From: Flaccisagitta enflata
Lineage: Eukaryota
DNA length: 64,000 nt
Reading direction: 5' to 3'
NCBI GenBank assembly: GCA_965153355.1
Contig: OZ231126.1
Span: 6,138,001 to 6,202,000, forward strand
In this document: positions 40,901-43,900 of the stretch, in pieces
Layout of the letters: the number at the start of each line of letters is the position of its first letter
Numbering within the stretch: position 1 is the stretch's first letter
Position numbers and translations under genes: made by a program
The notes under the pieces: model-generated
What the model saw: the letters and a program-made list of their open reading frames with translations, nothing else
Database searches by the model: none
What the model was told of the DNA's origin: nothing

Positions 40901-43900
40901 ATTGCTTCAAATATTCTTTTGTATTCTTATCTTTTAAAAGCCAAACTCATTTCAAAATCAACATACAGGGAGCACTGTTAGAGGGAGGCTGACTATGCGA
41001 TATCGTGGTTCCCGCAGGAGCCGGCGAGGGCGCTGATGATGCCACGGCGGAGGCAGCGGCGGCTGGCGTACTCACTGCTGCTGCGGGCTGCTGCGTCGAA
41101 GCTGCAGGCTGCTGAACAGCAGTGGCAGTCACAGGCGACGGCTGCGAAAACAAGAATTTCAGGCCATTGAAAGAACGATTTTATTGGAAAAAAGTCGAAT
41201 TACGTAATTCGACTTTTTGAAACGTAGGGGAGAAATAAAGTTTTCCGTTTGAGGCAATTTTAAAAAGTTGGGCAGTTTTTGGGATGAGAGTATACATGTG
41301 GAATATCGTTGATATTTTGGCATTTGGCGCCTTTGTACTACGATCCATTTCATTGTCCTTTCGTTGGCGTTGCTATTCATTTGCTTGTGATGATATATTT
41401 GATTATCTGGATGCATTCTTTCTTTCAGTTAATCAGTGTATTTTAACAAGCAATTCAACCTGGAAGCACTTTGGGGATTACAGTGGAACCTGTGGTGAGT
41501 GTACTTGGCTACATTTGTTGACAATTGATTGAATTGATTGAGGTAGTTATTGATGGTACACACTAGTTAGTTAGTTAGTAGATATTAACCAATCCTTCTC
41601 CCCTCTCTCTTTTGTTTCCCCCTCTTTCTCTTCCTGTAAATAATAGTTTAAATACACTTTCTTACCTAGTGATTAGAGATAGCATCCACAGACTGACGTT
41701 GGAACCAGCGCCACCGGAAGTGACGTTATCGGCGTGATTGGCGTTGCGATGGCGTATTCAAACCGGAAGTGGCGTCTTCAGTCGGAAGTTGCGTGGTCGG
41801 CAAGATCCTAATGACGGTACGAGACAGTATTTTCTACGGTTCTTCACAGTATTTAAACACCAAAGCCGCTGGTGAAAGTTGCTAACCCTATATTATAACC
41901 CCCTACTATACACGAGCACAACACGCAGGTAACATCAGATACTATGGCGAACATCAGACCGATCGAAGCCACAGTATGGGACCTGCGCATCGTTGCACAC
42001 GTGAGGCGAGAATTGGAGAAAAGCTTTAACTCAATGACGGTAGCCCTCGACCACGCGACAAAAACACCGTCGGAGGAGGCGCAAACCGAATTGAACTTAA
42101 AAAGCGACGCATTCTGCGACCTCTACGAGAAGCGTTTAGACGAATATAATGCCTGCAAAATTGAGAACGAGCCCAACGCCAGGGAAATGGCCGGACAATT
42201 GATGCAAGACATGGTTCGTTACAAAATAACGCTCGAATCCCACTTCAAGACGCAATCGGCAGGGGACGTCGACGAGACTGTTGACGACCCGGCGGAGGAC
42301 GTCGGGGCGTTGGGGGGATTACCGCTGCTGCACGAAAGCAGGACGAGCGGAAGAGGTGAAGGCGAAGGCGAAGAGGAAAGAAGGAGGAGACCGGAAGTGA
42401 CGAAAGAGACGGCGCCTCCAGCGTCGATGCTGAACTCATTGAAAAAGAGGGTATCGTTGACAGTGACTGCCGGAAGAAAGGTACTCGAAAACGTAGTCGG
42501 CAGTCAGACGCCGGAAAGACGCCAAAACCCGTCACATCCACCTCCTCCTCCTCCTCCAGCGACACCCCCCGCGGCGGCAGCAGAACTCACCATAGATGAC
42601 TCCATTCGGCCGAAAACTCGGCCACTTCCATCCGGCTTCCAATTGGCCGAAAATGAACTGCGGACAGCGGCAGAGGCCAACAAAAAAGACAAAGAGGCCA
42701 AAAAACCTCAAAGCGTGACCACCTCTGTTACTCCACGTGCTGATCCCGAACGCGACGACGACGCAGAAAATGCCAGGTCGACGATACGTTCGACGAGGTC
42801 GTCAGAAAAGGGATCCCAGAGGAGCAAAACGTCGACGGTGATGTCACGGCAGGTGGAGAAAGACAGACAGAGAAAAAGGGAAGCCGAGAAGGAACGGATA
42901 AAATCCAACGACGCGCAAGCGGACGCGGATATTGCGTATCATCAAAGCATTATCCAAGACATACAAAGGCAAAAGGACTCGACAAAACCCTCCACGAGAA
43001 AGAAATGGATAACATTGACAAAAATGCGGCGGAGCTGCAGGACTTGATAGCGGCAAATGAAGACGAACAGTCAACGGCAAGCTGCGCCGTCGAGGAGGAG
43101 AAAAGTCGAGGACGCTGGCCGGATTGGAGATGACCGCCGCAGGTGCAGCATTCGGTGGCGAAACTCCGGATGCATTGACGAGCGCATGGGTGAACGGAGT
43201 GACGTCGACCGACGTCGACGGCTAAGAAGGAGGTGAAGACGCCGTCAATCACAGAGAGATCGCCACCGGATCCACTGCGAAAGTCAAAAAGAAGCTTTAC
43301 GCCGAAGACCCAAAAAAGGAAAAAGAGGCAAAGACGGAGGTCAAAAACCACCGACAATGCCTTACCGTAAATTGGGTGACGTGAAGCCAAAGAAAATGGA
43401 GTCAGGAGAACAAGAGAGAACAAAGAGAGGGATCAAGACGAAAGACGAAAAGCCAGGGGCAAAGACAGATGCACCGGCGACGGTACATCCTCAGAAAGTG
43501 AAAAGCCCCAGCCGCTCGTCAATCGCGTCAAGATCATCGTCAACACGTTCGAAGGCGCCGTCGATAGCTTCTAGCAGTGCGAGCAGCCATGCTTCAAACG
43601 TCTCAGACACGCTAATGACGAGCATCTTGCGACTGCAGCGGCAACAGTTGGAGGCGGCGCTAAAGCAGACGGCTATCCACCAGCTGAAAGAAGCAAGACC
43701 CGCCAAAAAGTTCTCCGGAAATACGACCAAGAGAATGGACTTCGAAAAGCACATGAAAATCTTCAACGAGGCGATGGAGATCCCGGGCGTATCCAAGAAG
43801 CAAATGCTGAACGAGTTGCAGCATTGGTTTGAGGGATCGGCCTTCAAGCTGATCGAGGCGGAGACGCTGAAGAAGTCGGAGTCGGCCGTCGACGAGGCGT

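Follow-up and report, generated by a model that had tools for sequence, protein, structure and literature searches.

Minus-strand synthesis in retrotransposons with long terminal repeats (LTRs) can be primed by the element's own RNA. In Tf1 of Schizosaccharomyces pombe, the first 11 nt of the transcript pair with the primer-binding site (abbreviated PBS) and the RNase H cut falls between nt 11 and 12 (PMC7175516), and Tf2 of S. pombe as well as Tj1 of S. japonicus are likewise self-primed (PMC5341516, PMC4600332). Here, we analyse a BEL/Pao LTR retrotransposon at 41297-51478 of a 64,000-nt stretch of Flaccisagitta enflata DNA (contig OZ231126.1 of assembly GCA_965153355.1, positions 6,138,001 to 6,202,000, forward strand), which we call the window and whose positions are used throughout. 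As in Tf1, Tf2 and Tj1, a PBS candidate adjoins the LTR and is complementary to the LTR interior. We consider Tf1-like self-priming the best explanation of the element's minus-strand start, with a probability of roughly one half. That is, the element would work like Tf1 without being a member of the Tf1/sushi group.

The 5' LTR ends with ...TTCACA at 41848 and is directly followed by GTATTTAAAC (41849-41858). Read on the opposite strand, this 10-mer is identical to GTTTAAATAC at 41646-41655 within the LTR, a stretch that the 3' LTR repeats at 51276-51285. The pairing comprises exactly 10 bp, i.e., neither A41645/A41859 nor A41656/A41848 can pair, and it ends at the LTR edge. Both the LTR boundary and the complementarity had been proposed in an initial annotation of the locus; the former is confirmed by the comparison of the LTR pair and the latter by a motif search. 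A published in-silico rule predicts self-priming from at least 10 LTR-complementary bp that start 0-5 bp after the 5' LTR (PMC6317226); here, 10 of 10 bases pair at offset 0. The features involved, all on the forward strand, are:

41297..41848, forward strand: 5' LTR, 552 bp with TG...CA ends (repeat pair, 550/552 match to the 3' LTR)
41638..41656, forward strand: sole place in the LTR where poly(A)-signal-like hexamers cluster (AAATAA, AATAAT, AATACA; LTR motif scan), for which a reading as TATA-like box is also possible
41646..41655, forward strand: putative self-primer GTTTAAATAC, reverse complement of 41849-41858, which would be the RNA 5' end given a start at A41645/G41646
41690..41800, forward strand: putative R/U5 with the words CCGGAAGT/CGGAAGT (41714, 41763, 41783) and TGACGT (41694, 41721; LTR motif scan)
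41849..41858, forward strand: PBS candidate GTATTTAAAC, abutting the LTR, with no TGG before 41870

For one pre-chosen element, such a match is unlikely by chance. We kept the post-LTR sequence fixed and shuffled the LTR with dinucleotides preserved, which yields a match of at least 10 nt anchored at the first post-LTR base in 12 of 20,000 shuffles (6e-4). When offsets 0-5 are allowed, 0.68% of 5,000 LTR shuffles reach such a match. Empirical nulls amount to 0.11% for other internal positions of the element (10/9,077), 0.45% for positions of the window (282/62,869, a value inflated by simple repeats) and 1.26% for the AT-rich 10-mers of the window that find a reverse complement in the LTR (101/8,046). 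The chance of 5e-4 given in the initial annotation is thus in line with the shuffles while being somewhat optimistic for an AT-rich motif. Within the whole window, the 10-mer has three matches, all of them inside the element, vs. 0.17 expected, and three or more matches occur in none of 100 shuffles.

With regard to tRNA primers, the established scheme of retroviral reverse transcription has minus-strand synthesis start where U5 ends, such that any primer must have its 3' end paired no more than a few bases from 41849. TGG is absent from 41849-41869, i.e., the first TGG after the LTR is found at 41870, which agrees with the absence noted in the initial annotation. Since a CCA-ended tRNA requires TGG at this place and none is present within 21 nt of the LTR, it cannot prime, and an intact tRNA 3' end is excluded as primer by sequence reasoning. 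A displaced tRNA PBS, TGGTGAAAGTTGC at 41870, was considered and rejected, because the 21-nt offset would shift the LTR edge and, by the same kind of reasoning, the implied tRNA end would be without a proper T arm. An Rfam scan of 41800-41960 (E-values up to 10) returned nothing tRNA-like, the sole match being a chance-level snoRNA (E 0.23, 18 bits vs. a gathering score of 80), and ARAGORN found no tRNA gene in the window.

Priming by other tRNA parts is known as well. Copia and Ty5 use half-tRNA or internal-tRNA priming, and like these two the plant elements Osser, Bryco and Bianca have a PBS without initial TGG, as is the case here. For the three plant elements, the PBS matches either tRNA-iMet or tRNA-Ile, in the 5' half or in the anticodon arm (PMC6317226). 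We read the primer-sense strand as the 5' part of a tRNA that ends in or after the anticodon arm. Unlike in the half-tRNA-primed elements with such matches, a primer end at offset 0 here allows no register that combines U33 with a plausible anticodon, a purine at 37 and a paired stem. One register remote from the primer end pairs 4/5 stem positions, without T arm.

Under self-priming, A41645 or G41646 of the 5' LTR would be the transcription start, immediately after the hexamer cluster that resembles poly(A) signals. The RNA would fold its leading 10-11 nt back across the ~200 nt of R-U5 that separate the two complementary sites, where they would pair with 41849-41858, upon which the element's RNase H would cut after C41655. 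The freed 3' end would then be positioned opposite G41849, such that the terminal LTR A is copied first; the Tf1 group shows the same geometry, in which the freed 3' end could begin copying at the last LTR base. A short R would serve the transfer of strong-stop DNA, and poly(A) addition would presumably take place near 41665-41690 in LTR coordinates. Self-priming would account for the complementarity ending precisely at the LTR edge. Furthermore, the site adjoining the LTR should be the working one, because the copy is young, its frames are open and its family is abundant. In Tf1, the complementarity is 11 nt long instead of 10 nt, and start, RNase H cut and pairing requirement were shown experimentally (PMC7175516), while here start, cut and pairing requirement, as well as the limits of R and a preservation of the pairing in relatives, are presumed.

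The start at A41645 or G41646 is putative and suggested by its context. Neither AATAAA nor ATTAAA is present anywhere in the LTR, and the cluster at 41638-41656 consists of hexamers which we take to be poly(A)-signal-like. AAATAA (41638-41643) and ATAGTT (41643-41648) lie where the initial annotation had placed them, and T41644/A41645 forms a pyrimidine-purine step. This context is compatible with an RNA 5' end there; a TATA-box reading is compatible, too. If the cluster acts as poly(A) signal, cleavage would follow ~10-30 nt further on and R would have to start before that. A start at A41645 would fit this, as it would give the order of signal, cap site and short R, i.e., a coherent U3/R border. 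In the Rous sarcoma virus LTR, the poly(A) signal is followed by the cap site within few bases and R measures ~20 nt, with a TATA box ~30 nt upstream of the cap site and tRNA-Trp as primer. The order of signal, cap and short R proposed here resembles this layout, which serves as a lead only; the viral upstream TATA box and primer tRNA differ from what we propose.

Four sequencing runs were compared as assembled contigs, from which RNA ends, strand and level cannot be read; two of them (X17, X18) are metatranscriptomes with possible DNA carry-over. One X18 contig (record 24) spans 50921-51300, i.e., it ends at the equivalent of 41670, which as a single contig end gives a weak hint of a poly(A) site at this position. 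The cover of X17 and X18 over 41722-42443 is low or absent and carries no weight either way. The words CCGGAAGT/CGGAAGT and TGACGT, which we take to be candidates for ETS-like and CRE-like binding sites, respectively, would lie downstream of the start in the self-priming model.

RNA folding was studied for different transcript ends. For RNA 41645-41880, the minimum-energy fold pairs the 5' end with the post-LTR 10-mer. When the RNA starts at 41645/41646 and reaches no further than 41943, the helix is predicted with a probability of 0.58-0.88, which is lower for upstream starts. Such modelling is compatible with self-priming and proves nothing, i.e., the energies lend no support either way.

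Several observations weigh against self-priming. For RNAs lengthened to 42100 or 42400, the helix probability drops to ~0. At -7.6 kcal/mol and with A-U in 8/10 pairs, the duplex is weak, and the fold is not unusually stable (z -1.58), since 14 of 200 shuffles are as good. With regard to the RNA ends, no TATA-like motif is found in the sequence ~30 nt upstream of 41645, and R would be short, with only ~15 nt left once the primer is removed. An X17 contig covers 41703 and 40 letters beyond and thus extends past 41670; by bin depths it seems to run from U3 to U5, for which DNA carry-over or read-through is an equally possible source. Furthermore, the ICTV profile gives tRNA-Arg or tRNA-Gly as primers of BEL/Pao elements (PMC8742986), and Achilles of the olive fruit fly uses tRNA-Tyr (PMC4580426). 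Finally, a coincidence of 0.1-1% will occur somewhere when very many elements are scanned.

This last point leads to the alternative that we hold possible, if clearly short of an even chance, namely that the match is a coincidence of AT-rich motifs. The LTR 10-mer would then belong to a TATA box, a poly(A) signal or both, in U3, and the primer would be a host RNA paired by its 3' end at 41849-41852, for instance half of a tRNA, an internal fragment of one (as in copia/Ty5) or another small RNA. The rate of 1.26% among the AT-rich 10-mers of the window speaks for it, as does TTTAAA within the motif, which is self-reverse-complementary. TAAATAA and TTTAAATA are TATA-like by consensus, and the AT-rich 10-mer together with the neighbouring TAAATAA could form a TATA box for a start at ~41665-41685, which would put the 10-mer into U3; the missing TATA motif upstream of 41645 also counts in its favour. 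Such a start, also when placed near 41670-41685, would lack any downstream poly(A)-signal-like hexamer in the LTR by which R could be defined. The alternative also has to attribute to chance the anchoring of the match at offset 0, seen in 6e-4 of the shuffles, as well as its end precisely at the LTR edge. As for the host primer, half-tRNA priming is known in Ty1/copia lineages (PMC6317226), and an end at U38 of a UAA-anticodon loop, at offset 2, is compatible with the register test; at offset 0, there is no anticodon-arm register, in addition to the lack of anything tRNA-like in Rfam. Precedents for LTR elements with neither a tRNA nor a self-primer site exist with SM-Tcn1 (PMC2864245) and GalEa, which has a conserved hairpin site (PMC5445492).

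Two further explanations accept the complementarity as such or question the copy. It is unlikely that the helix was selected for its structure, i.e., for primer access, packaging, dimerisation or translation control comparable to retroviral U5-leader and U5-IR stems, while another molecule primes. The helix is present in the minimum-energy fold of the 5' RNA, and RNA structures around the PBS are reportedly needed in retroviruses and in Tf1, as Lin and Levin 1998 state in their title. An extra stem-loop is listed as a requirement of Rous sarcoma virus (PMC5445492). On the other hand, the helix occupies the primer's own bases and would compete with any other primer, none of which is apparent; a structural role gives no reason to stop exactly at the LTR edge, and the predicted stability is low. 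It is quite improbable, in turn, that the copy is unrepresentative, with a post-LTR sequence that stems from recombination or mutation while active masters carry an ordinary tRNA-type PBS. In its favour, contigs of the DNA run X1 show a highly heterogeneous family (from <90% to >=99% likeness) and other copies carry indels between the first open reading frame (ORF1) and gag. However, the 550/552 match of the LTRs implies only ~0.04 expected changes in a 10-nt site, the depth over the leader in X1 (46,512 over 41722-42082) is like that of internal bins, and no well-supported variant is seen at either 10-mer among 40 of 963 variant rows, by which invariance is not proven. Taken against these alternatives, Tf1-like self-priming remains our preferred reading.

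The element itself is an intact BEL/Pao LTR retrotransposon, complete with both LTRs. A repeat search of the window places the LTR pair at 41297 and 50927 (spacing 9630 bp). Both LTRs are 552 bp long with TG..CA ends and agree in 550/552 positions; the sole differences are adjacent, i.e., TA at 41339/41340 of the 5' LTR vs. CG at 50969-50970 of the 3' LTR. This is the pattern expected from methylated-CpG deamination on both strands. The remaining features are:

41292..41296, forward strand: target-site duplication ATACA, left copy, with the same 5 bases at 51479-51483
41944..43047, forward strand: ORF1, 367 aa (ORF list), sharing its frame with gag, with three stops between
43357..44640, forward strand: gag-like ORF, 427 aa, with terminal TGA at 44638 (weak Pfam match)
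44641..48672, forward strand: pol (Pfam domains), in the frame of gag, with a single TGA between
48703..50883, forward strand: ORF4, 726 aa, in the frame of pol, with a single TGA (48670, then CTA) between
50918..50926, forward strand: candidate polypurine tract AACGGGGAC, read by eye just 5' of the 3' LTR
50927..51478, forward strand: 3' LTR (repeat pair), carrying the same 10-mer at 51276-51285 (motif search)
51479..51483, forward strand: target-site duplication ATACA, right copy, matching the left one

The assignment to BEL/Pao, already made in the initial annotation, is upheld by the Pfam domains of pol. Peptidase_A17 (5.8e-33, residues 543-711) is followed by the integrase with Integrase_H2C2 (4.5e-8) and a weak rve match to its core (4.2e-4), and then by DUF5641 (1.3e-19). 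TG..CA LTRs and a 5-bp duplication, within the range of 4-6 bp of the group, agree with this, and the element is a BEL/Pao member. The tRNA PBS of known BEL/Pao members, a descriptive and not a group-defining trait, is absent here. Since pol is of the BEL/Pao type and Pfam finds no chromodomain, the element does not belong to Tf1/sushi.

All four long ORFs (41944-50883) are in one reading frame. ORF1, for which the Pfam search matched no family, is cut off from gag by stops at 43045, 43048 and 43234. The gag-like ORF shows a weak DUF1759 match (E 6.9e-4, 20.1 bits, under the 25.4-bit cut-off) and a hint of a zinc knuckle in Pfam, and it is divided from pol by one TGA (44638, then CAT). ORF4 begins with a hydrophobic, cysteine-rich stretch and continues mainly as low-complexity sequence, charged E/K/R-rich and G/R-rich; Pfam assigns it no family and the Atlas gives no match. 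A reading as envelope gene was considered for ORF4 and, given this composition and the lack of matches in both resources, is not supported. The UGA-CUA at the pol/ORF4 junction is presumably a classic leaky stop context, and stop-codon read-through seems likely, on sequence grounds, as the expression mode of the in-frame ORFs. Many X1 copies and a contig from run X4 carry small insertions at 42977, 43096, 43206, 43285 and 43342, due to which the frame of the ORF1-gag linker varies between copies. Given the near-identical LTRs and the open reading frames, the element is a recent and coding-competent insertion. A perfect 7-bp hairpin with a 3-nt loop (TTGGAAT-GGG-ATTCCAA, 50903-50919) overlaps the candidate polypurine tract.

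Compared with its own superfamily, the element shares pol domains, TG..CA LTRs, a short target duplication and a length of ~10 kb with the Belpaoviridae (e.g., Tas) and Achilles (PMC8742986). Whereas these have an 18-nt PBS that matches tRNA-Arg, tRNA-Gly or tRNA-Tyr at the 3' end, this element shows no TGG within 21 nt of its LTR. An additional ORF precedes its gag, and behind pol lies a fourth ORF that is not envelope-like. BEL/Pao elements are described with one ORF or with overlapping gag and pol (PMC8742986), such that the single in-frame TGAs observed here are unusual. The Tf1 group, on the other hand, belongs to the Ty3/Gypsy chromoviruses, i.e., to another superfamily than this element with its Peptidase_A17 and DUF5641 and without chromodomain, while Tj1 shares with it a gag stop codon in frame with pol (PMC4600332).

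The initial annotation had known of self-priming only in the Ty3/Gypsy Tf1/sushi group. This is incomplete, since self-priming has also been predicted for the TAR lineage of Ty1/copia (Houba, Osr-1), along with the plant Tcn1 chromoviruses (PMC6317226). These predictions follow the same rule that identifies the site described here. They differ from our case in that they concern plant elements of other superfamilies and were derived from whole lineages (12% of the elements analysed), while a single copy is considered here (PMC6317226). A large survey of BEL/Pao elements (PMC3118150) has 0 occurrences of PBS or tRNA, and our literature search, whose coverage left most subscription journals outside, found no paper that proposes self-priming for BEL/Pao.

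If self-priming holds, it would have arisen or persisted in a third superfamily and thus in all three superfamilies of LTR retrotransposons, and the escape from host tRNA primers would have occurred in this third superfamily as well. It would also be the first non-tRNA priming described for Belpaoviridae, and it would bear on the old question, raised in PMC3601003, of whether LTR elements had hairpin or self-priming as their ancestral state. Furthermore, annotation pipelines that seek only tRNA 3' ends at the PBS would miss or misjudge such elements. With slightly less than even confidence, we propose that a BEL/Pao lineage that is very abundant in one marine animal and in many marine metagenomes has swapped tRNA priming for Tf1-like self-priming with a layout of poly(A) signal, cap and short R. 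Because the family is so abundant, this prediction is cheap to test.

The abundance is evident from sequencing runs as well as from protein searches. In X1, 12,835 contigs match the element family, which is thus very abundant and diverse: 3,707 are at least 99% alike, 4,664 show 95-99%, 3,353 90-95% and 1,111 less than 90% likeness. The summed contig depth of 46,512 over the leader resembles that of the interior, from which we infer that the leader is common in the family, and none of the 40 variant rows mentioned above falls at 41646-41655 or 41849-41858. Parts of the element are present in 20 of the 24 listed runs, which come from 9 studies and are mostly labelled as marine metagenomes, including two metatranscriptomes. 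A database search with pol gave 262 relatives, and those listed share the same Pfam set. The closest ones (94%, 75-80% and 50-59% identical) are all assembled environmental sequence, while named animal proteins are ~35% identical.

Contig searches were less productive. ORF1 and pol have no relative among viral contigs, ORF1 has none among its 591 pattern matches in metagenome contigs, and the pol alignment (14 sequences) has none among 56 matches in prokaryote-genome contigs. The junction pattern with the 10-mer left open has 0 matches in genome and viral contigs. In metagenome contigs, 1 of the 66 matches of the pol alignment is a relative, i.e., a 1,197-bp contig (L001) that is 56% identical and covers only the C-terminus of pol and downstream DNA, with neither LTR nor PBS. 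At 380-620 of this contig, the related pol also ends in TGA, followed by AT-rich sequence.

Within the window, blastn finds no second copy of the element; its 11 alignments to the rest of the window all concern the simple repeat at 49886-50230. The element is nested in another high-copy repeat (41000-41296 and 51479-51800), the left flank of which reaches a summed depth of 385,745 in X1. Contigs of X17 and X18 reach 41297 and continue with letters like those of the right flank, as an empty site of the flanking repeat would. Among 10 ORFs of the window searched with Pfam, matches were confined to an OTU-like one (742-1464) and a Lysostaphin_N-like one that is borne by a repeat (29241-30623). 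The window is mostly repetitive, with short tandem repeat arrays of periods 8-15 at 30651-31550, 36881-37276, 51640-52400, 58963-60700 and 62075-62650; a 162-bp tandem repeat in 5 copies is also among the arrays.

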